Positions 862-50,078 of a stretch of DNA of 64,000 nt are shown here, one piece after another. A program made the position numbers and the translations under genes. Source of the DNA: Deltaproteobacteria bacterium (GTDB taxonomy: Bacteria > Desulfobacterota > Dissulfuribacteria > Dissulfuribacterales > UBA3076); the NCBI GenBank assembly GCA_003194485.1, contig PQXD01000004.1, forward strand, positions 90,822 to 154,821. Reading direction: 5' to 3'. The stretch's first letter is position 1, and the number at the start of each line of letters is the position of its first letter. The notes under the pieces are model-generated. The model searched no databases, was not told the DNA's origin, and worked only from the letters and a program-made list of their open reading frames with translations.

Positions 862-1056
862 GTAAATATCCGGTGAACCCGTGGTCCACTGTGGAAGTTG
901 CCATCCGTGCCCTGCCGCAGAAGCGGTTTGCCTTTTACAGGGTTTCAACCGCGGGCCGGATTGCACTGCCTCTCCGGTCTGCGATGAGTGAGCTTTGAAA
1001 CCCGGAAAAAGGTAACCGCTTCAAGGCAGGATATAACGGGTTCACCGAATATTTAC
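862..1056 (+). mobile_element. O-element copy 1: 195-bp MITE-like hairpin repeat with no nested module
   Basis: Terminal inverted repeats GTAAATATCCGGTGAACCC / GGGTTCACCGAATATTTAC. It is flanked by the direct repeat ATCCGGAAA (853-861 and 1057-1065). About 95% identical to 3150-3344. Internal segments are self-complementary (CCTGCC..GGAGCGGTT pairs with AACCGCTCC..GGCAGG). Confidence 0.75.
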
Positions 1057-2661: not shown

Positions 2662-3055
2662 ATATGACTATTGAGTTAGCTCCGCTTCGATATATAGTCT
2701 TTGATTATTGGTTAATCATCCCTTGTCCCTCCAATGCTCTCATCCCTTGTTTTCTGAGGCTTTTGCAGCATGGGACCCTCCCTGTTCTCCTCCGCTGCGC
2801 TCCGGAGCCAGGGTTTTCCGTACTGCAAAAGCCAGGAAAACTACGGGACTTCCGCAAGTCGCTCCAAGGGATAATTACCCAATAATCCGTTACAATCAGC
2901 ATATGATGCGGAGCTATACACGACGTCAGACATAGCTGCCGAAAATTGATAGATCCCTTTCAACAATTAATGTGTAATTCAAAATACTTATGCGAAATAG
3001 CAATTGCAAAAATCGGCAATTACTTATGACGCTGTATATAACTCAATAGTCATAT
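2662..3055. repeat. Layered palindromic composite: outer 17-bp inverted repeats enclose a second shell and a C-module
   Basis: ATATGACTATTGAGTTA (2662-2678) versus TAACTCAATAGTCATAT (3039-3055). The inner shell GCTCCGCTTCGATAT pairs with CATATGATGCGGAGC on either side of 2703-2887. Confidence 0.7.
2703..2887 (-). repeat. C-module copy I1 (core hairpin module, arm type c)
   Basis: Arms are GATTATTGGTTAATCATCCCTTG / CAAGGGATAATTACCCAATAATC. The core matches 17963-18156 in reverse orientation. The apex GCTGCGC at 2794-2800 is the reverse complement of GCGCAGC. Confidence 0.85.
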
Positions 3056-3149: not shown

Positions 3150-3344
3150 GTAAATATTCGGTGAACCCGTGGTCCACTGTGGAAGTTGCCATCCGTGCCC
3201 TGCCGCAGGAGCGGTTTGCCTTTTGCAGGGTTTCGATCGCGGGCCGGATTGCACTGCCTCTCCGGTCTGCAATGAGTGAGCTTTGAAACCCGGAAAAAGG
3301 TAACCGCTCCAAGGCAGGATATAACGGGTTCACCGAATATTTAC
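3150..3344 (+). mobile_element. O-element copy 2 (195 bp, empty)
   Basis: TIRs GTAAATATTCGGTGAACCC / GGGTTCACCGAATATTTAC. It is flanked by GTCTCGAA (3142-3149 and 3345-3352) and ends 43 bp before the gatB start. Confidence 0.75.
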
Positions 3345-3386: not shown

Positions 3387-4817
3387 ATGGAATATGAGGC
3401 GGTAATAGGCCTTGAGGTCCATGTTCAGCTGCAGACTGAAACGAAGATTTTCTGCCCTTGCTCAACTACGTTTGGTGCCCAGCCCAATACGCATTCATGC
3501 CCGGTGTGTGTGGGTATGCCCGGAGTTCTGCCTGTACTTAACAGGAAAGCGGTGGAGTTTGCCATGAAAATGGCGCTGGCTACTAATTGCAGAATAGCCC
3601 CTCTCAGTATTTTTGCGAGAAAGCACTATTTTTATCCTGATCTGCCCAAGGGCTATCAAATTTCTCAATATGAGCTGCCTCTGGCTGAGAGCGGTTGGGT
3701 CGAAATCACTATAAACGGACAGGCCAAAAGGATCGGCATTACACGCATCCACCTGGAAGAGGATGCCGGCAAATTGATACATGATGAAAACAGTCCTGTC
3801 AGCTATGTGGATTTCAATCGGACAGGTGTGCCTTTGATTGAAATCGTGAGTGAGCCTGATATCCGGAGTCCTGAAGAGGCTGCTTTATATCTCAGGAAAA
3901 TCAGACAGCACGTCCGTTACCTGGAGATCAGCGACGGAAATATGGAAGAGGGCAGTCTGCGCTGTGATGCCAATATCTCCCTGAGACCCAGAGGCCGGAA
4001 AGACTTTGGCGTCAAGGCAGAGCTCAAGAATATGAATTCTTTCCGTCATGTGCAGAAGGCTTTGGAGTTTGAGATAAGACGCCAGACAGCTATCTTGCTT
4101 GACGGTCATGAGATAGTACAGGAGACCCGTCTTTGGGATGCGGCCAAGAGTATTACGGTCCCGATGAGAGGTAAAGAAGAGGCCCACGATTATCGATATT
4201 TTCCTGATCCGGATCTGGTTCCGGTCGAGATTGATAATGACTGGATAGCCGAAATAAAGGCGGAAATGCCTGAGCTGCCTGATGCAAAATGCACTCGCTT
4301 CAAGGAGCAATACGATCTTTCAGACTATAACGCAGGAACCCTCACAACCTCAAAGTCCCTGGCTGATTACTTCGAAGAATGTGTGGCCCTGTTTCCCGCC
4401 CCAAACATTGTCAGCAACTGGATAATGGTTGAATTGCTCCATCTTCTGAAACAGGATGAGCGGGAAATAGACGATTGTCCGATATCTCCCGCCGGCCTGG
4501 CAGAGTTGCTCAAGCTGATAGATGAAGGCACTATCAGCGGCAAGATGGCAAAAGACATCCTTGAGCAGGCATATGATTCAAAAAAGAGTCCCAAAAGGAT
4601 CGTGGAAGAACAGGGACTTGCCCAGGTAAGTGATGAATCCACACTTGGTGCTGTGGTTGATAAAGTAGTGGAGGCCCACCCAAAAGAGGTGAAAAAATAC
4701 AAGTCCGGCAAGACAAAGATCCTGGGTTTTTTAGTTGGACAGGTTATGAAGGCGACAAAGGGACAGGCCAATCCCAAAAAGGTAAACGAGTTGTTGCAAA
4801 AGGCCCTGGGCTTATGA
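3387..4817 (+). CDS. gatB: Asp-tRNA(Asn)/Glu-tRNA(Gln) amidotransferase subunit B
   Basis: 476 aa. [31 protein letters not shown] and a C-terminal GatB/YqeY-like tail. Confidence 0.95.
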
Positions 4818-5917
4818 AAGACATTGCTGCTGGAGACAACGACTCGCCATTAACCCTGCTCCAGAGAGAAGGCAATACATCTATAGTGCCGCTCCATTGG
4901 GAAAACCATGTTCTTTATTTATTGGACCAAAGGTTATTACCCCATGAGGAGACCTGGCTTGAGTATAGATCTGGAAGAGATGTTGCTCAGGCTATAGAAG
5001 ATATGGTGGTAAGGGGAGCACCGGCCATAGGGATTGCCGCCGCTTTTGGCATGGTTTTGGACGCCTACTGGCTCAAGGACGAAGAATACAGGGACAACTT
5101 TGTGGAGAAATTGCTGGAGGAAGCGGCTTTCATGCTTCAGGCCCGGCCTACGGCAGTAAACTTGAAGTGGGCAATAGAAAAGCTTACAGGGCTTGCGCGC
5201 AGGCATTCCGGGTTGAATCCGGACGATCTCGCAGCCATTTTGGAAAAGGAGGCCATTTCTATTTGGACAGAAGACATAAAGGCAAACCTGGCCATAGGAT
5301 TTTATGGTCAGGCCCTTTTACCGGAAACCGGCGGCGTACTCACTCACTGTAACGCAGGCGGCCTTGCTACCGGTGGATATGGAACCGCCCTTGGAGTTAT
5401 CAGGGCCGCTCTTTCCGAGGGAAAGGAGATCGATGTTATTGCCGGTGAGACCCGCCCCTGGCTCCAGGGTGCCAGGCTTACCGCCTGGGAGCTTATCAAG
5501 GACGGGATAGCGGTTACCCTGATTGTGGACGGGGCAGCGGGTTTTTTGATGCAAAAGGGGCAGGTCAAGGCAGTGGTGGTCGGGGCCGATCGCATTACAG
5601 CAAACGGTGATGTTGCCAACAAGATCGGGACCTACACTATAGCTGAGCTTGCCAGGGCTAATCACATTCCTTTTTATGTGGCTGCCCCTGTCTCCACTAT
5701 TGACCCTGTCACCCCGTCCGGAGATCAGATCCCCATAGAAGAGCGTATATCCCTGGAAATCACCACTTTTGCCGGAAAGGAGATCGCTCCTTTGGGTGTA
5801 AAGGTTCGCAATCCAGTCTTTGATATTACTCCTCACCATCTCGTAACTGCGATAATCACCGAGTTGGGTGTGCTCACCCCGCCATATGGTCCTGCAATTT
5901 ATGCCTGTTTCTCTTGA
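4814..5917 (+). CDS. mtnA: S-methyl-5-thioribose-1-phosphate isomerase (eIF-2B alpha/beta/delta-like family)
   Basis: 367 aa. [15 protein letters not shown] and [20 protein letters not shown] motifs. The start overlaps the gatB stop (ATGA). Confidence 0.85.
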
Positions 5918-6806
5918 TAATTTTATCCGGTTGGTTGCAAACGTCTTTGATTCATTCACTGCTGCCCTGTTTATCCGCAGTGACCAGGGAGATGATCTCC
6001 GTCTGGTGGCATGGGAGAGTCTCAGCCCCTATATAGTGCCCGGATGCAATATCGGGATCGGACAGGGACTTATAGGCTGGGTTGCACGGGAGGGAAAGAG
6101 GCTGCATGCGACCTGTTTTGATAGAGATACCAGGACTCTTGGCATTTACAGCAGAGACATTGATATAAAGGCATTTCTCGCAACCCCCTTGCCAGGCGGT
6201 GCAGGGGTCCTGATGGTCGACAGCAAAAATCGCTATTCTTTTCCTGAAAAGAAACAGCGCATTTTAGAAGACTGTGCAGTAGTTGCTTCTGATTTATGGT
6301 CTTCATGGAAAAGCTCCCGTGAACTCAGGTTCTATAGTCGTTGGAACAAATGGCGCCACGGCCTTTCAGGGGAAATAGAGCATCTGTTAGCAAGCCTGAA
6401 AGAATTGTTGGGGCTTAAGTGCGGTCTTGTAGCCTTTCATGAAAGGGGCAATAATATCTTCATAATAAAGGCCACCATCGGACTGCCTCAAAAAGTTCGT
6501 CTGGAAGGTGAGAGTTTTGACATGAGAAAAGGCCTTGTCGGCTGGCTTCTGAGATACAAAAAGCACTTGATTCTCAGCCGTTATGGAGCGGATAAACATA
6601 AGTCTTATTTTTTATGGCCTGGTGAGCCTTTTGACAGAGGTCCGGTGGCAATAGGGCTTTTTCAGCCAATCAAAGCAGGTGCATTGGTATGGATTCTTAC
6701 TGGAGACACGGACTTGTCAGGGTGGCCGGAAGGTCTTGCCGAACTCTTGGTTTTTTCTCTTGATCGAGTCATTAATGATTACACTGCAAAAATTCCTGAA
6801 ATATGA
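5901..6806 (+). CDS. GAF domain-containing protein
   Basis: The ORF track starts at 5868. ATG 5901 (MPVSLDNF) gives a shorter overlap with mtnA. GQGLIGWVAREGKRL...FLATPL is a GAF-like pattern. Confidence 0.6.
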   Translation: MPVSLDNFIRLVANVFDSFTAALFIRSDQGDDLRLVAWESLSPYIVPGCNIGIGQGLIGWVAREGKRLHATCFDRDTRTLGIYSRDIDIKAFLATPLPGGAGVLMVDSKNRYSFPEKKQRILEDCAVVASDLWSSWKSSRELRFYSRWNKWRHGLSGEIEHLLASLKELLGLKCGLVAFHERGNNIFIIKATIGLPQKVRLEGESFDMRKGLVGWLLRYKKHLILSRYGADKHKSYFLWPGEPFDRGPVAIGLFQPIKAGALVWILTGDTDLSGWPEGLAELLVFSLDRVINDYTAKIPEI

Positions 6807-6928
6807 TTCCGCTCAAAATGCTTCAGATGCAAGGCGCGAGATTTCCGAGGAATGAGGCGTACTCAACGTACGTCGCAGTGACGAGGAAATCGAAGCAACG
6901 CAGCAGATGGGGCATTTTCAGCGGAATC
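6805..6928. repeat. 124-bp imperfect-palindrome repeat (family R124), copy 1
   Basis: Ends GATTCCGCTCAAAATGC / GCATTTTCAGCGGAATC with centre GTACtcaacGTAC. It matches 38541-38658 in reverse orientation and fills the whole gap from the GAF-gene stop to 4 nt before ATG 6933. Confidence 0.85.
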
Positions 6929-6932
6929 ATTA

Positions 6933-17816: not shown

Positions 17817-18193
17817 GTAAATATTCTTATGAACCCGTTATATCCCGCCTTGAAGCGGTTACCTTTTTCCGGGTTTCAAAGCTCACCCATTGCAGACCGA
17901 AAAGGCAGTGCAATCCGGCCCGCTACCCAAAACCCCGCAAAAGGCAAACCGCTCCTGCGGCAACCGGTCACACAGGGTGCTCCTTCTGAAAACGATTTGC
18001 GTCAGCCCTGTAGTTTTCTTGGTCTTCGCAGCATGGGAAACCCCCGGCTCCGGAGCGCAGCGGAGGAGAACGGGGGAGGGTCTCCCATGCTGCGAAGGCC
18101 TTAAGAAAACAAGGGGCGAGAGCATGTTGGAAGAAGGAGCACCCTGTGTGACCGGTTGCCGGTGGAGCACGGACGGGTTCACCGGATATTTAC
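17817..18193 (-). mobile_element. O-element copy 3 (reverse orientation) carrying one nested C-module
   Basis: Ends GTAAATATTCTTATGAACCC / GGGTTCACCGGATATTTAC. The O-element body matches the reverse complement of 3150-3344. It starts 9 nt after the TPR-gene stop and ends 79 nt before the 18272 start. Confidence 0.8.
17963..18156 (+). repeat. C-module copy I2 (arm type b)
   Basis: Arms ACCGGTCACACAGGGTGCTCCTTCT / AGAAGGAGCACCCTGTGTGACCGGT. The core contains GTAGTTTTCTTGG...CCTTAAGAAAACAAGGGG. Apex GCGCAGC at 18055-18061. Confidence 0.85.
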
Positions 18194-26841: not shown

Positions 26842-27075
26842 AAAAAAATGAACATCGAACATCGAACATCCAACATCGAATATTGAATGGGAAAAGATGA
26901 AGGAACAGAGGTCAGAAGCCGGAAGCCGGAGGTCGGAAAAACAGCAACCAAATATTCCTGAACCTTTGTTTCTCATTTGGTGTTTGTTTTTCATTCGACG
27001 TTGGGCGTTCGATGTTCGATGTTGGACGTTCATCTCTTGAACCTCTGAACCCTGAACCTCTGAACCTCTGAACCT
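26842..27075. repeat. Low-complexity palindromic repeat with heptamer and octamer arrays
   Basis: (GAACATC)n at 26850-26891 faces the inverted array ATTCGAC GTTGGGC GTTCGAT... at 26993-27034. (TCTGAACC)n follows at 27037-27075. The element fills the convergent gap between thpR and the ATPase gene. Confidence 0.85.
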
Positions 27076-27344
27076 CTATCTTATGCAGGCCGCCTTAACC
27101 TGTTTTAGTTCTGTATCTCCTTTTAAGACCTTCTGTATACCGTCCTGCTTCAGGGTAAACATTCCCTGCCTCATGGCATGCTCCCGTATTTCTTCCAAGG
27201 GGCATTTCTTCTGTATAAGCTTCTTAAGGTTGTCATCCGACACGAGCAGTTCGTGAATCGCGAGCCTGCCCCTGAATCCGGTCCTGTTGCAATGTTGGCA
27301 ACCCTTTGGCCGGTATAGCTTTATGTCATTCAGGTCTGATGGTT
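27076..27344 (-). pseudogene. Out-of-frame C-terminal continuation of the PilB/GspE-like ATPase
   Basis: In a different frame from 27345-29435, the reverse strand reads SNPTLEPSDLNDIKLYRPKGCQHCNRTGFRGRLAIHELLVSDDNLKKLIQKKCPLEEIREHAMRQGMFTLKQDGIQKVLKGDTELKQVKAACIR-stop (stop at 27076-27078). This is the normal C-terminus of the family, including the second CxxC. Confidence 0.8.
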
Positions 27345-31669: not shown

Positions 31670-32073
31670 ATTGAATTATCTTTAGCCAAATGCTTTTCTA
31701 TGATTTTTGACAGTCTTGTTATTCTCAACCTGACCAAACCCAGAGATACATTGTCTCCAAATATTGTTACCAGAATTAATTCAGTGCCTATTCGTGCAAA
31801 GTGTATGCTGTCTTTTTTGCCTTTGTGAAACAGGAGTGCAAAGTCGTCTTCTCCTATCAGTTTTGCGATCTGCGAAGTGGCGCCGAAGTTGGCTGCCGCC
31901 AGGGCTGCCAGGGAGGTCGTGTCAAGATCGCAGGTTTTATCACCGCAAGCCGCCACCACATTGCCCGTTTCATCAATCAAGAGGACGGTATCAACGCCTG
32001 CCTTAATAAGGGTATTTTCTATCTGTATTTTGGCCTCTTCCAGGAATGAAGCGGTCAGCACTAAATCGGCCAC
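31660..32073 (-). CDS. mglB: Roadblock/LC7 domain protein MglB (MglA GAP)
   Basis: 137 aa. The Roadblock/LC7 pattern (VLLIDETGNVVA...AALAAANFGA...). Its 3' end overlaps the mglA start by 10 nt. Confidence 0.8.
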   Translation of the reverse strand: MADLVLTASFLEEAKIQIENTLIKAGVDTVLLIDETGNVVAACGDKTCDLDTTSLAALAAANFGATSQIAKLIGEDDFALLFHKGKKDSIHFARIGTELILVTIFGDNVSLGLVRLRITRLSKIIEKHLAKDNSIWP

Positions 32074-32422
32074 GTTTAAACCTCAAAAAATAAAAGGATA
32101 TCTTGTCTCAAAAAGACGGATAAACTCTCAGCTGAGACTCCCGAATTAAAGAGACTCTAATGGTATTATCGACCAGATCATTGAAGATATTAATTCTATC
32201 CCGACGCTTGCGAGGTAACTCTCAGCCACTGCTCAGGACGTAGAATAGACAGAACTTGAATTTGATAAGGGCCACAGTAAATATTCTTTCCTGCCTTGAA
32301 GCGGTTACCTTTTTCCGGGTTTCAAAGCTCACTCATTGCAGACCGAAAGAGGCAGTGCAATTTGGCCCGCGATCGAAACCCTGCAAAAGGCAAACCGCTC
32401 CTGCGGCAGGGCACGGATGGCA

Positions 32423-32627
32423 ACCGTTCACGGGAAGGGGATATTTCTTTGAACAGTTTAACGGAAGCCCCCGTAGTTTTCTTGGCTTTTGCTGTGGGGG
32501 AAACCCCGGCTCCTGAGCGCAGCGAAGGAGAACGGGGAGGGGGCAAGACTCCCCCATGTCAAAAGCCTTAAGAAAACAAGGGGCTGAAGTGTTAAGTGAA
32601 AAGAAATGTCCCCTGCCCGTGAACGGT
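32423..32627 (+). repeat. C-module copy I3 (arm type a)
   Basis: Arms ACCGTTCACGGGAAGGGGATATTTCTTT / AAAGAAATGTCCCCTGCCCGTGAACGGT. Apical hairpin at 32504-32537 with GCGCAGC at 32517-32523. Confidence 0.85.
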
Positions 32628-32644
32628 CTGCACAGTGGATTTAA

Positions 32645-32841
32645 ACTGATCACAGGGGAGCTTCTTTATGGAGACGATTTGCGTCAGCCCCGCAAGTTTT
32701 CCTGGCCTTTACAGCATGGGAAACCCCGGCTCCTGAGCGAAGCGAAGGAGAACGGGGAGGGGGCAAGACTCCCCCATGTCAAAAGCCTTAAGAAAACAAG
32801 GGGCGAGAGCATTTGGAAGAAGAAGCTCCCCTGTGACCGGT
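32645..32841 (+). repeat. C-module copy I4 (arm type b, chimeric mid-stem)
   Basis: Arms CACAGGGGAGCTTCTT / AAGAAGCTCCCCTGTGACCGGT. The left mid-stem resembles I2 (CAGCATGGGAAA) and the right mid-stem resembles I3 (CTCCCCCATGTCAAAAGCC). Apex GCGAAGC at 32737-32743. Confidence 0.8.
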
Positions 32842-32982
32842 TACCAGTGGACCACGGGTTCATAAGAATATTTACGGTCGCAAATGGAGCAGTCAGTCCT
32901 TTATTCTACCTGTTGATGTAAATGAATTTGCCGAAGTTTAGGAAGGGGGCAGAGAGATTTATGGGGTATATCTGGGGAATAG

Positions 32983-34932
32983 TTATTTTAAGAGGTCTTT
33001 CATCTTCTCGGCAAGGCTTTCGGCATCAAGGCCCTGAAGGCGGTACAGATCATCTGGCTTACCTGAAGAACCATAGTTTGTCACTCCCAGGGTAAGAAGC
33101 TGCTGGCACATGCCTGCCCCTATAAGTTCTTGCGCCACCATGGCCCCCAGGCCCGTGCATACCACATGGTCTTCAACCGTTATGAGCGGACCTTTCTTAG
33201 CTGCCTCAAGTATTGATTTCCTGTCTATGGGCTTGAGAGAAGCCATGTTGAGCACCCCTACCGACAAGCCCTGTGAATCGAGAATTGACCATGCTTCGAG
33301 GACCTGAGAGGTAACCGAGCCATAGGTGATAAAAGTGGCCTCATCACCCTGCCTTAACCAGTCTGCCCTCCCTGGCTGAAATAAATAGTCCGCATCGAAA
33401 AACGGCCTTCCGTCCATTGAAGTAATTATTGGCAACTTGGACCTTCCCATACCCACAAAGCAATTGCCTGGATTGGCAGCCACATACCGGACTATCCTGT
33501 CAGTCTGATTTGGATCTGCCGGCATGAATACGGAGAAGCCGAAGAGGTTGTTGAAAAGTCCCACATAGTCGAGACTCTGATGGGTCGGGCCGTCTTCTCC
33601 TACGTCCAGCCCCAGATGAGTAGATACTATTTTGAGATGGGTCCTGTTTAGGTCATTTAGCCGGTGCTGGTTGTAAGTCTCTGCCGCGGCAAAGACCCCA
33701 AAGGTGCTGAAGAAGCTAACCAATCCTTCTCTGCTCACCGCTCCGGCGCAGGTAGCTGCATGGTGCTCCTGTATGCCTGTTTCTATGAATGTGTTGCGGG
33801 AAACGCTGTGAAAGCCCTGCATCTTTACTGATCCCTCCAGATCACAGCTAAATCCTACGATCTTCGGAACAGAATCCGCAACATTGTTCCTTTGGGCCAG
33901 ATCCCTTAATGCTGTACCGTAAGCAGAACGGCAGTCTGTTTTGGTCCCGGGATCGTAGACAATGGGTTCTCCGGGATCAATGGATGGGAATTTTGCCTCT
34001 GGTGTCTTGCGATGCCTTTCTATTCGGTGTTCGATTCTATTCCTTGACCACAGCTCAAGTAGCCCCTGATCTTGCCCCAGTTCTCTTAATGCCGACCGGG
34101 CATCCTCGTTTGACAGCGGAGATCCATGATACTTTGCCTTATTCTCCATAAAGGAGATACCTTTTCCCATGACGGTGCGCATGACCAGGACGGTGGGTCG
34201 GCCTGTCACAAGGCGGTCATGTGTCCATGCCCTCTTCAGGGCCTTGAATACGGTCTGGAAATCATTGCCGTCAGGTACGTACAATACATTCCAGCCTGCG
34301 GAAGTATACTCATCCCTTACACGGACAGGCATTACCTCTTCGGTAGAACCTCCTATCTGCAGGTGATTTCTGTCGATTATACCAATCAGGTTCCCTTGAC
34401 CGAACTTGATTGCAAAACGTCTGGCTTCGGATATCTGCCCCTTCTGTTGTTCTCCATCGCCCATGAGGACGATTGTTTTACCCGGCCGAGCGAGGAGATT
34501 CTGGGCAAGGCATATACCCGTACCCACTGAAAGCCCCTGGCCAAGATTTCCGGTATTCCATTCAACTCCAGGCATGGTTTGTTCTATATGGCCGGCACAG
34601 GATGAGCCGGCACGACGAAACTCGCTGAGGAAATCTTCTTCTGAGAAATAACCGAATTCAGCGAGTACGCTGTAGACGCCTGGAGAGATATGCCCGATGC
34701 TTATGACCACGCGGTCACGGTCCGGCCAACCGGGTTCTGTTGGACGATGTCTGATTACGCTGTAAAGGACAAGCAGGATGTGCAGGGAGGACAGAGAACC
34801 GCCTGGATGACCGCTTCCTGCCAGTGTGGTGGAAAGGATAACGCGCGTGGCACATCTGTTCCACATAGTGTGCAGCTTGGTGATCTGTTCCTGTGTAAGT
34901 TCGTTTTGTTTTTCTATGTCTATGTGAAACAT
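32983..34932 (-). CDS. tkt: Transketolase
   Basis: 649 aa. HPGGSLSSLHIL, GDGEQQKGQ (ThDP-binding GDG), EDGPTHQSLDYV and a C-terminal transketolase domain. Confidence 0.85.
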   Translation of the reverse strand: MFHIDIEKQNELTQEQITKLHTMWNRCATRVILSTTLAGSGHPGGSLSSLHILLVLYSVIRHRPTEPGWPDRDRVVISIGHISPGVYSVLAEFGYFSEEDFLSEFRRAGSSCAGHIEQTMPGVEWNTGNLGQGLSVGTGICLAQNLLARPGKTIVLMGDGEQQKGQISEARRFAIKFGQGNLIGIIDRNHLQIGGSTEEVMPVRVRDEYTSAGWNVLYVPDGNDFQTVFKALKRAWTHDRLVTGRPTVLVMRTVMGKGISFMENKAKYHGSPLSNEDARSALRELGQDQGLLELWSRNRIEHRIERHRKTPEAKFPSIDPGEPIVYDPGTKTDCRSAYGTALRDLAQRNNVADSVPKIVGFSCDLEGSVKMQGFHSVSRNTFIETGIQEHHAATCAGAVSREGLVSFFSTFGVFAAAETYNQHRLNDLNRTHLKIVSTHLGLDVGEDGPTHQSLDYVGLFNNLFGFSVFMPADPNQTDRIVRYVAANPGNCFVGMGRSKLPIITSMDGRPFFDADYLFQPGRADWLRQGDEATFITYGSVTSQVLEAWSILDSQGLSVGVLNMASLKPIDRKSILEAAKKGPLITVEDHVVCTGLGAMVAQELIGAGMCQQLLTLGVTNYGSSGKPDDLYRLQGLDAESLAEKMKDLLK

Positions 34933-38505: not shown

Positions 38506-38540
38506 TTTTATCTTTTTACTCAAGTTATCATTTAAGTGAT

Positions 38541-38658
38541 GATTCTGCTGAAAATACACCATCTGCTGCGTTGCTTCAATTTCATCGCCATTGCGGCATA
38601 CACTGAGTACACCTCATTCCTTGGGAATCTCACGCCTTGCATCCGAAGTATTTTGATC
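38541..38658. repeat. R124 family repeat, copy 2 (reverse orientation, 3' end degenerate)
   Basis: GATTCTGCTGAAAATACACCATCTGCTGCGTTGCTTCAATTTC... aligns with the reverse complement of 6805-6928 over almost its full length. Confidence 0.8.
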
Positions 38659-38917
38659 TGTAAACTCATGCAGGACTGCAAGGCTCCGGCCTTTGGCAGG
38701 ATACCAGGACTTAATGCCTTTGTATTGTTGCAACATAGGAGTTATTTTTATATTCTGATTCCGTGCTGTCACCTGAAGGTCTGCAAAAGGCTCAACGTGG
38801 GCATGCAGCCGCGTTCCACATTTCCAGATACGGAATGATTAATTACGTGAATATAGCCCTTTGTCATTTTATATGTTATTTCCTTATTCAAGATTAAAAA
38901 AGGAGGGCTTTTCCTAG

Positions 38918-40679: not shown

Positions 40680-40750
40680 GTAAATATCCGGTGAACCCTC
40701 AGTCCACTCCGCAAACCGTTCACGGGCAGGGGACATTTCTTTGAACAGTT
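40680..40750 (+). repeat. Truncated O-element left end plus C-module type-a left arm
   Basis: GTAAATATCCGGTGAACCC..ACCGTTCACGGGCAGGGGACATTTCTTTGAACAGTT stops 3 nt before the rluB ATG. No matching right halves are present. Confidence 0.75.
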
Positions 40751-40753
40751 CAG

Positions 40754-41473
40754 ATGAGACTGCAAAAATACCTCGCCAATGCCGGTGTATGCTCCAGGAG
40801 AGCCGCAGAAGTGCTCATCCGCTCAGGCCGGGTCACTATAAACGGTGAGGTTGCAAGGCTTGGATCCAAGATAGATCCATACACAGATATCATCTGCGTT
40901 GACAAGATCAGGGTTCTCTGTAAAAGACAACTCGTTTATCTTTTGCTTAATAAACCAAAAGGCGTCCTGACCACAGCTCGTGATCCCTATGGGCGAACCA
41001 CTGTAATGGATCTGCTTCCGGGAAGAGTTCCGGAGCGGGTTTATCCTGCTGGGCGCCTGGATAAAGACAGTGAGGGTCTGCTCCTCCTCACAAATGACGG
41101 TGCTCTGGTTCACCGGCTATTGCATCCCAGCCATAAGATCTCAAAGACTTACCATGCAACAGTGAGAGGGAGACCTTCAAAAGCCGCTTTGGATCTGCTT
41201 CGACGAGGTATAGAGATAGAAGGAAAAACGACATTGCCCTGCGAATTGCGTGTGCTGAAAACCACGAGGCGTTCGACGATACTGGAAGTTACGCTGAAAG
41301 AAGGCAGAAAACGCCAGATAAGATTGATGTTCAATACGTTAGGCCATTCCGTCATCAGGCTGATACGTATCAAAATAGGTCCTATAAGGCTGGGGAAGCT
41401 GCAACCTGGCAAGTACAGGATATTGACCGACACTGAAGTGGAGCTGCTGAAGAAGTCAGCGGGATTGGTTTAA
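40754..41473 (+). CDS. rluB: Pseudouridine synthase, RsuA/RluB family
   Basis: S4 domain MRLQKYLANAGVCSRR and the catalytic GRLDKDSEGLLLLTNDG motif. Confidence 0.85.
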   Translation: MRLQKYLANAGVCSRRAAEVLIRSGRVTINGEVARLGSKIDPYTDIICVDKIRVLCKRQLVYLLLNKPKGVLTTARDPYGRTTVMDLLPGRVPERVYPAGRLDKDSEGLLLLTNDGALVHRLLHPSHKISKTYHATVRGRPSKAALDLLRRGIEIEGKTTLPCELRVLKTTRRSTILEVTLKEGRKRQIRLMFNTLGHSVIRLIRIKIGPIRLGKLQPGKYRILTDTEVELLKKSAGLV

Positions 41474-49675: not shown

Positions 49676-50078
49676 GTAAATATTCTTATGAACCCGTGGT
49701 CCCATGTGCGTAACCGTTCACAGGAAGGGGATATTTCTTTTCACTTCACACTTCAGCCCCTTGTTTTCTTAAGGCCTTTGACATGGGGTATGTCCTGCCC
49801 CCTCTGCATTCGCCTTACGCTGCGCTTAAGGCGATGCAGTTTCCCCCACAGCAAAAGCCGAGAAAACTACGGGGGCTTCCGTTAAACCGTTCAAAGAAAT
49901 ATCCCCTTCCTGTGAACGGTTGCCATCCGCGCCCTGCCGCAGGAGCGGTTTACCTTTTGCAGGGTTTCGATCGCGGGCCGGATTGCACTGCCTCTCCGGT
50001 CCGCGATGAGTGAGCTTTGAAACCCGGAAAAAGGTAACCGCTTCAAGGCAGGATATAACGGGTTCACCGAATATTTAC
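49676..50078 (+). mobile_element. O-element copy 5 (forward orientation) carrying one nested C-module
   Basis: Ends GTAAATATTCTTATGAACCC / GGGTTCACCGAATATTTAC. The module sits at the same internal position as in the other composites. It ends 46 nt before the 50124 start. Confidence 0.8.
49713..49920 (-). repeat. C-module copy I5 (arm type a, alternative apical hairpin)
   Basis: Its reverse complement matches 32423-32627 except for the apex (49804-49839), which has different stem sequences but the same loop (GCTGCGC at 49819-49825 is the reverse complement of GCGCAGC). Confidence 0.85.

Follow-up and report, generated by a model that had tools for sequence, protein, structure and literature searches.

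The window, by which we mean the whole stretch of DNA analysed (64 kb), belongs to an uncultured sulfate-reducing bacterium of the Dissulfuribacterales, whose genome was assembled from a metagenome. At 32277-32875, between a transketolase gene and an operon for Robl/MglB-like and Ras-like GTPase proteins, lies a copy of a repeat that we call O. It starts with GTAAATATTC at 32277, finishes with ATATTTAC at 32875 and carries two modules in tandem. The region is very probably a nested stack of non-autonomous DNA transposons (MITEs), with the following parts:

32277-32875 (+): composite O, read here as an older O-left fragment fused to a two-module (a+b') O
32277-32422 (+): O-left body, with the terminal GTAAATATTC and then TT in place of GGTGAACCCGTTATA
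32423-32627 (+): module 1, type a, a 205-nt hairpin with arms AACCGTTCACGGGAAGGGGATATTTCTTT / AAAGAAATGTCCCCTGCCCGTGAACGGT; putative donor of the patch described below
32633-32640 (+): left target-site duplication copy of the b' insertion, CAGTGGAT, inside the 17-nt spacer 32628-32644
32645-32841 (+): module 2, type b', a hairpin with arms ACTGATCACAGGGGAGCTTCTTTATGG / GAAGAAGAAGCTCCCCTGTGACCGGT; putative recipient, chimeric
32718-32804 (+): maximum extent of the putative conversion tract, 87 nt identical to 32498-32584 of module 1
32842-32875 (+): O-right end, with terminal inverted repeat ACGGGTTCATAAGAATATTTAC, a variant diagnostic of the composite subfamily
32845-32852 (+): right target-site duplication copy of the b' insertion, CAGTGGAC

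Both modules are long imperfect hairpins, with RNA minimum free energies of -115.8 (module 1) and -96.6 kcal/mol (module 2). The original prediction had placed two modules of different type, 17 nt apart, inside one O; the coordinates proved exact, and we type the second module b'. The octamer at 32633-32640 is degraded in the window (CAGTGGAT) and reads CAGTGGAC in L001 and other composites (L numbers denote related loci). The flanks of the composite, GGCCACA and GGTCGCA, form no matching target-site duplication.

An empty O measures 195 nt and ends in 21-nt terminal inverted repeats (GTAAATATTCGGTGAACCCGT / ACGGGTTCACCGGATATTTAC). The window holds 5 copies of O and 1 truncated copy; besides the composite, these are:

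862-1056 (-): empty O, 195 nt, flanked by a perfect target-site duplication, TTTCCGGAT
3150-3344 (-): empty O, 195 nt, flanked by a perfect target-site duplication, TTCGAGAC
17817-18193 (+): O with one b-type module (17963-18158); left junction a-like, right junction b'-like
40680-40750 (+): O end, truncated and abutting an a-type arm; the next gene starts 4 nt further downstream
49676-50078 (-): O with one a-type module (49713-49920)

In the three filled copies, which hold 1, 1 and 2 inserts, the extra DNA sits at one position in the right arm, and each insert is an imperfect hairpin of ~200 nt with a minimum free energy of -97 to -135 kcal/mol. The junction pair of the copy at 17817-18193 is consistent with a deletion derivative of the composite. 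At 40680-40750, the O terminus and the a-type arm stand in opposite relative orientation, and a pseudouridine-synthase-like gene starts at 40754. The copies at 862-1056, 3150-3344, 17817-18193 and 49676-50078 lie 38-82 nt upstream of start codons (1104, 3387, 18272 and 50124, respectively). Beside the copy O1, a solo 11-nt terminus-like sequence, GTAAATATTCG, lies just past the target-site duplication.

A metagenome scan with an O 21-mer returned at least 120 stretches, and ~1 Mb of loci was mined for O and modules. Among the matches listed, there are at least 65 distinct O sites (~45 empty, ~14 with one module and several with two) and at least 71 unique module sequences, and O lengths group at ~195, 377-409 and 603-613 nt. 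At the 50 sites with intact ends among these matches, the flanking octamers agree in at least 7 of 8 positions at 35 and perfectly at 22, against an offset control in which the match was at most 4/8 in all but one. The definition of a MITE includes terminal inverted repeats, a fixed target-site duplication and the lack of a transposase gene (PMC3184786). O has terminal inverted repeats, its target-site duplication is fixed at 8 bp, and the elements are dispersed in the many copies counted above. They are small (O 195 nt, modules ~190-210 nt and a third hairpin family, c, 98-268 nt) and have no transposase gene; the only open reading frames inside them are short and overlap on both strands. The 8-bp duplications at 35 of the 50 sites and the lack of coding capacity together argue that O is a transposable element and, by definition, a MITE. 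A computed search for empty sites returned paralogous targets only, among them the single TGAATGT in paralogues of the L063 target; an orthologous empty site for O1 was not recovered, both related contigs having O.

The b and b' modules have the termini GTAACCGGTCAC... / ...GTGACCGGTTAC, which extend into complementary arms of ~28 nt. Because CAGTGGAC flanks b' on both sides in O and is single in empty O (a paralogous comparison), and because free-standing b copies (L075 and L125) have the GTAACCGGTCAC ends and 7/8 duplications, the b' module appears to be a mobile hairpin transposon in its own right. No clean target-site duplication flanks the a-type module within O. The c family makes 8-bp duplications and has a ~110-nt core in common with the modules. 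Its copy in the window is as follows:

2663-3054 (-): c-family hairpin with terminal repeat TATGACTATTGAGTTAGCTCC and target-site duplication TAAATAAA, sharing the module core

Nested in one arm of this copy, at ~2905-3030, is an extra inverted-repeat element of ~124 nt (TATACAGCGTCA...TGACGTCGTGTATA), which is missing from the same site in L021:8005-8246 and L115:5203-5444. The c family forms a size series of 98, 109, 142 and 268 nt. We rejected the idea that the short c copies are empty hosts of modules: since the size forms are nested in each other and have no duplication, the series looks like symmetric deletions of the hairpin tip. The ~110-nt core is better conserved than the arms; it may be just the longest shared homology, kept uniform by conversion. 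Nesting of the elements is reciprocal, O being found inserted in modules at L069 and L079 (duplication GGAAGTGA/GGAAATGA) and at L083 (GTTCACGG). Modules also occur inverted inside O (L077, L049 and 40680-40750 of the window), an arrangement that recombination between a module's own inverted arms would produce. Other repeats are present as well. Inverted arrays of the heptamer GAACATC/GATGTTC, together with four copies of GAACCTCT, occupy 26843-27080, and a related motif, GTTTTTCATTCGACGTTCGATGTT, lies beside an O target site in L063 (~2400-2700), L095 (~5090-5160) and L121 (~3490-3560); these arrays may be another repeat family. A ~135-nt repeat unrelated to O and the modules forms an inverted, hairpin-capable pair at 6794-6930 and 38539-38675 (81-82% identical).

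Composites elsewhere share the order of a, spacer and b', the internal CAGTGGAC duplication and the diagnostic substitutions, and stand at sites with duplications of their own: L018/L080 (CTTAACAC), L020 (TTTGCTC), L104 (GrTCATTC) and L077. A two-module O is thus not special to the window locus but belongs to a subfamily, one that has moved as a whole to at least 4 other sites. In all these composites, the right mid-stem of b' reads TCCCATGCTGCAAAGGC and can pair with the left one, and this right mid-stem is kept in nine b' modules outside the window locus. This implies a single b' insertion, followed by dispersal of the composite and only later by an a-type patch at the window locus.

To describe this patch, we aligned module 2 to module 1 and to the consensus of nine b' modules from other sites, with 79-85 informative sites. 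Module 2 has the b' state on both flanks and the a state at 17 consecutive informative sites (32734-32790), a run length found in 0 of 200,000 permutations. Breakpoint mapping on the module alignment, as had been suggested beforehand, places the switch from b' to a after 32716, the last b' site before the run, and the return by 32805, the first b' site after it. The minimum tract is 32734-32790, or 32762-32790 without the polymorphic site 32734. The patch spans the apex and the right mid-stem, and the left mid-stem (GCCTTTACAGCATGGGA) lies outside it. Because the patch reaches the right but not the left mid-stem, the central helix loses pairs (alignment columns 92-96/157-161), and the folding energy per nucleotide of module 2 is the weakest of the b' modules compared (-0.49 versus -0.50 to -0.61). 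The left mid-stem of module 2, TGGCCTTTACAGCATGGGA, agrees with the 17963 module at 16 of 19 positions and with module 1 at 13 of 19. The original prediction had described just such a module, with a left mid-stem like that of the 17963 module, a right mid-stem and apex flank matching module 1 and a central stem that pairs worse, and it is borne out on each of these points. Among the at least 71 unique module sequences, an a-type patch in b' arms occurs at the window locus only. The best explanation of the patch is an exchange between the two modules, which would make module 2 a recombinant. In addition, the window and L001 differ over 5.7 kb by 8 SNPs and 1 indel, all of them within 32413-32649, and every variant state there is also present in paralogous copies. 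Such clustering inside the element, with the states of paralogues, fits ectopic conversion.

Orthologous contigs were identified through transketolase proteins from the 90% identity cluster of the neighbouring gene. In these relatives, the right junction is common (ATATTTAC joined to GGTCGCAAATGG) and the second module varies:

L127, L129, L131, L134: unconverted b' core
L133 (98% flank identity, the window's closest relative): a-type right mid-stem, a window-like chimera
L130: a-type throughout the core, with the mismatches of the a type also present in the left arm
L132: reverse patch, with a-type left mid-stem and b' right mid-stem
L126, L135: a single hybrid, aL-core-b'R, read as the deletion product of unequal crossing-over
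L127: an extra b'L-core-aR hybrid between the a and b' modules, read as the reciprocal triplication product, with three modules

The locus shows at least 8 structural alleles. All the relatives, however, are known from short-read metagenome assemblies, the region is rich in repeats, and the alleles L126, L128, L137 and L138 could include mis-joins. The converted left mid-stem of L130, GCTTTTGCTGTGGGGGA, is a-type sequence down to its wobble and mismatch positions. We rejected intra-hairpin templating as the way in which L130 restored its stem: since its left arm bears the a-type mismatches, it would have been copied from an a module and not from its own right arm. Together with the 17-site run, the orthologous unconverted alleles uphold the earlier claim of recombination or template switching between modules, and the allelic series in related populations supports that of ongoing turnover of the family. 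The gene neighbours vary too. The Robl/MglB-like and Ras-like GTPase operon on the left side adjoins transketolase in the window, Ham1 in L137 and an epimerase in L138, and the transketolase side adjoins DUF5320 genes (L126) or a PhdYeFM-PIN pair (L135). The coincidence of O copies with synteny breaks suggests O-mediated rearrangements, with short-read mis-joins as a possible cause.

An origin of the chimera and the allelic series in misassembly, with near-identical repeats collapsed or mis-joined, seems very unlikely to us. Contig breaks are frequent at these elements, all 8 SNPs between assemblies lie inside the repeat and the flanking genes differ among some alleles. Even so, three assemblies made by different pipelines reproduce the chimera, and it is present in two haplotypes: the window has one, and L001 (ENA) and L008 (JGI) share the second. 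Exact stretches common to unconverted b' and a are only ~16-20 nt, far below the k of 141 given in the ENA contig names, and therefore a graph path could not switch there. The unconverted alleles, moreover, come from both k141-named and NODE-named assemblies (L127 and L129). Exchange between the modules is thus the reading that we retain.

The left end of the composite was predicted to have lost about 16 nt. A loss there is; its size is a net 13 nt, 15 nt (GGTGAACCCGTTATA) having become TT, and the end seems to belong to an older, fused O fragment. In L139, L140 and L142-144, a 120-nt O-left fragment with a degenerate end, GTAAATATTCTTTCC, adjoins the left flank, and directly after this old fragment comes an intact composite O starting with TAAATATCCGGTGAAC. 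The window, L001 and L008 have one O-left, with markers of the old fragment on its left (GAAGCGGTTACC) and of the composite on its right (GACCGAAAGAGG). Since a single O-left has mixed markers, a unit of ~121 nt would have been deleted by a crossover between ~32315 and 32345, and this deletion would explain both the missing nucleotides and the absent target-site duplication. The shortened left end would then be the end of the older O fragment and not a product of decay of the composite's own terminus, a history that rests on the relatives because the window copy's own duplication is absent. As the fusion removed the intact left terminus and the target-site duplication, the window composite is probably immobile.

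The repeats could also be read as functional. The ~110-nt core might be cargo, either a protein-binding DNA hairpin or a small RNA, with the a/b' array acting as a recombinational switch. The tandem array lies 204 nt upstream of the Robl/MglB-like and Ras-like GTPase operon, and such a switch, if true, would produce strain-level regulatory variants; we hold this to be highly improbable. Still more doubtful is that O and the modules are a structured non-coding RNA gene or a cis-regulatory RNA whose differences represent covariation. Long, stable hairpins, compensatory changes in 19 of 56 predicted pairs, a ~110-nt core conserved beyond the arms and the frequent position of copies 38-82 nt upstream of start codons speak for such a role; against it, the elements have clean 8-bp duplications, lie in either orientation at dozens of unrelated sites and show reciprocal nesting. 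Selection at the RNA level, sought as an asymmetry between G:T and A:C stem mismatches, was rejected: the raw counts are 207 versus 101, yet the distinct events are balanced (65 versus 55), so there is no real asymmetry. Rfam 15 gave 0 matches at gathering scores over the whole window and nothing credible at E < 10 over 32200-32950 (the best was SCARNA11, at 20 bits versus a threshold of 37), and promoter- and terminator-like sites over 31900-33100 were at background level, with no excess. Compensatory differences are expected from recombination between element types; we found no evidence of an RNA function, and the 19 compensatory pairs would reflect such exchange. Finally, that module 2 is a third, independently conserved subtype and not a recombinant, the counter-case named with the original prediction, is scarcely credible: the b' arms do differ from the 17963-type b arms as a conserved subtype, and the two-module layout was inherited and did not arise locally, but the nine b' modules elsewhere and four orthologous alleles have a matching b-type right mid-stem, and in the larger set of at least 71 modules the a-type patch, identical to a module 220 nt away, is confined to this locus, including the closest relative L133.

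We propose the following history, of which the comparisons show the first steps. A b'-type hairpin MITE inserted into the right arm of an O that already held an a-type module, duplicating CAGTGGAC. The a+b' composite then reached several sites as one unit, and one of its copies came to lie beside an older O fragment, with the transketolase gene on one side and the Robl/MglB-like operon on the other. The modules in the window are direct repeats 220 nt apart with the ~110-nt core in common, and module 2 differs from its paralogues and from the orthologous alleles by an a-type patch of 57-87 nt. The shared core would recombine, and in the window lineage a conversion tract would have replaced the apex and right mid-stem of b' by those of module a, leaving the b' central stem mispaired. 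A separate homologous deletion would have fused the old O fragment to the composite. For the patch itself, RecA-type conversion and replication template switching are both compatible with the sequence. As for mobility, a search of the window and of ~1.1 Mb of related loci, for terminus pairs 0.65-4 kb apart and for repeated segments of at least 650 nt, turned up no autonomous element with matching termini, and on this ground we infer that a DDE-type transposase acting in trans may move these elements. The candidates for a parent were rejected, being two independent O copies flanking housekeeping genes, a surface-protein fragment, a duplicate of a multihaem cytochrome and a palindromic assembly artefact. 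L117:1574-4019, in a metagenome contig, is a perfect 1224-nt inverted duplication, probably a palindromic assembly artefact.

In ISfinder descriptions, elements of the IS66 family have inverted repeats starting with GTAA and make 8-bp duplications. The O termini (GTAAAT), the b termini (GTAACC) and the 8-bp duplications of our elements recall both features, each of which is generic, but neither the window nor the ~1.1 Mb yielded a transposase of IS66 type or a full-length element bounded by such ends. By analogy, an IS66-family insertion sequence is a possible parent.

Bacterial MITEs have been reviewed, with Nezha of cyanobacteria, Chunjie of Geobacter uraniireducens and the Correia elements of Neisseria among them (PMC3184786). 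Like O and the modules, these are at most ~400 bp long, have terminal inverted repeats, a target-site duplication of fixed length and no transposase gene, fold into long hairpins, occur in many dispersed, mostly intergenic copies and are linked to genome plasticity (PMC3184786). The sequences of O and the modules are unrelated to those of known MITEs, judging by the lack of credible matches in Rfam, plasmids, viral contigs and species-representative genomes. They also differ from known MITEs in that at least 3 families with different arms and termini share one conserved core, that nesting is reciprocal and that a two-module composite transposes as a unit. A module 19-mer found two chance matches only in species-representative genomes, both within coding sequence; module and O patterns had 0 matches in viral contigs, and a plasmid BLAST with empty O returned no match. 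Pneumococcal BOX elements and enterobacterial BIMEs resemble these repeats in having interchangeable modules of variable number and order. Their modules, however, are short units that have neither terminal inverted repeats nor target-site duplications and did not arise as nested transposon insertions, whereas those described here are hairpin transposons of ~200 nt. Likewise, REP and BIME units are G+C-rich palindromes of ~20-40 nt without terminal inverted repeats or target-site duplications, and our units are 195-290 nt long with terminal inverted repeats and 8-bp duplications. The locus recalls concerted evolution by gene conversion and unequal crossing-over: the conversion tract is short and links direct repeats that lie 220 nt from each other, both reciprocal products are present, and SNP states are shared with paralogues. 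Classic template switching in quasipalindromes perfects a hairpin; here, the neighbouring module is the template and the hairpin becomes less perfect. The a-type mismatches copied into the converted arm of L130 disfavour such switching as well.

O, a, b/b' and c are previously undescribed, abundant MITE families, and nested MITEs evolving by homologous recombination are an already established kind. Proteins encoded in the window are identical to those of a metagenome-assembled genome labelled "Deltaproteobacteria bacterium" (locus tag C4B57_), and close relatives bear the label Dissulfuribacterales. The Dissulfuribacterales include Seep-SRB2 (PMC10553843), and the host lineage is probably Seep-SRB2, a syntrophic partner of methane-oxidising archaea. 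The presence of these MITE families explains the fragmentation of assemblies of such genomes at their sites. The elements behave as selfish repeats, and the locus opens no new biological question; what it offers is a detailed view of how MITEs evolve after insertion, through conversion tracts of varied length, reciprocal unequal crossing-over, inversions, fusion and synteny breaks.
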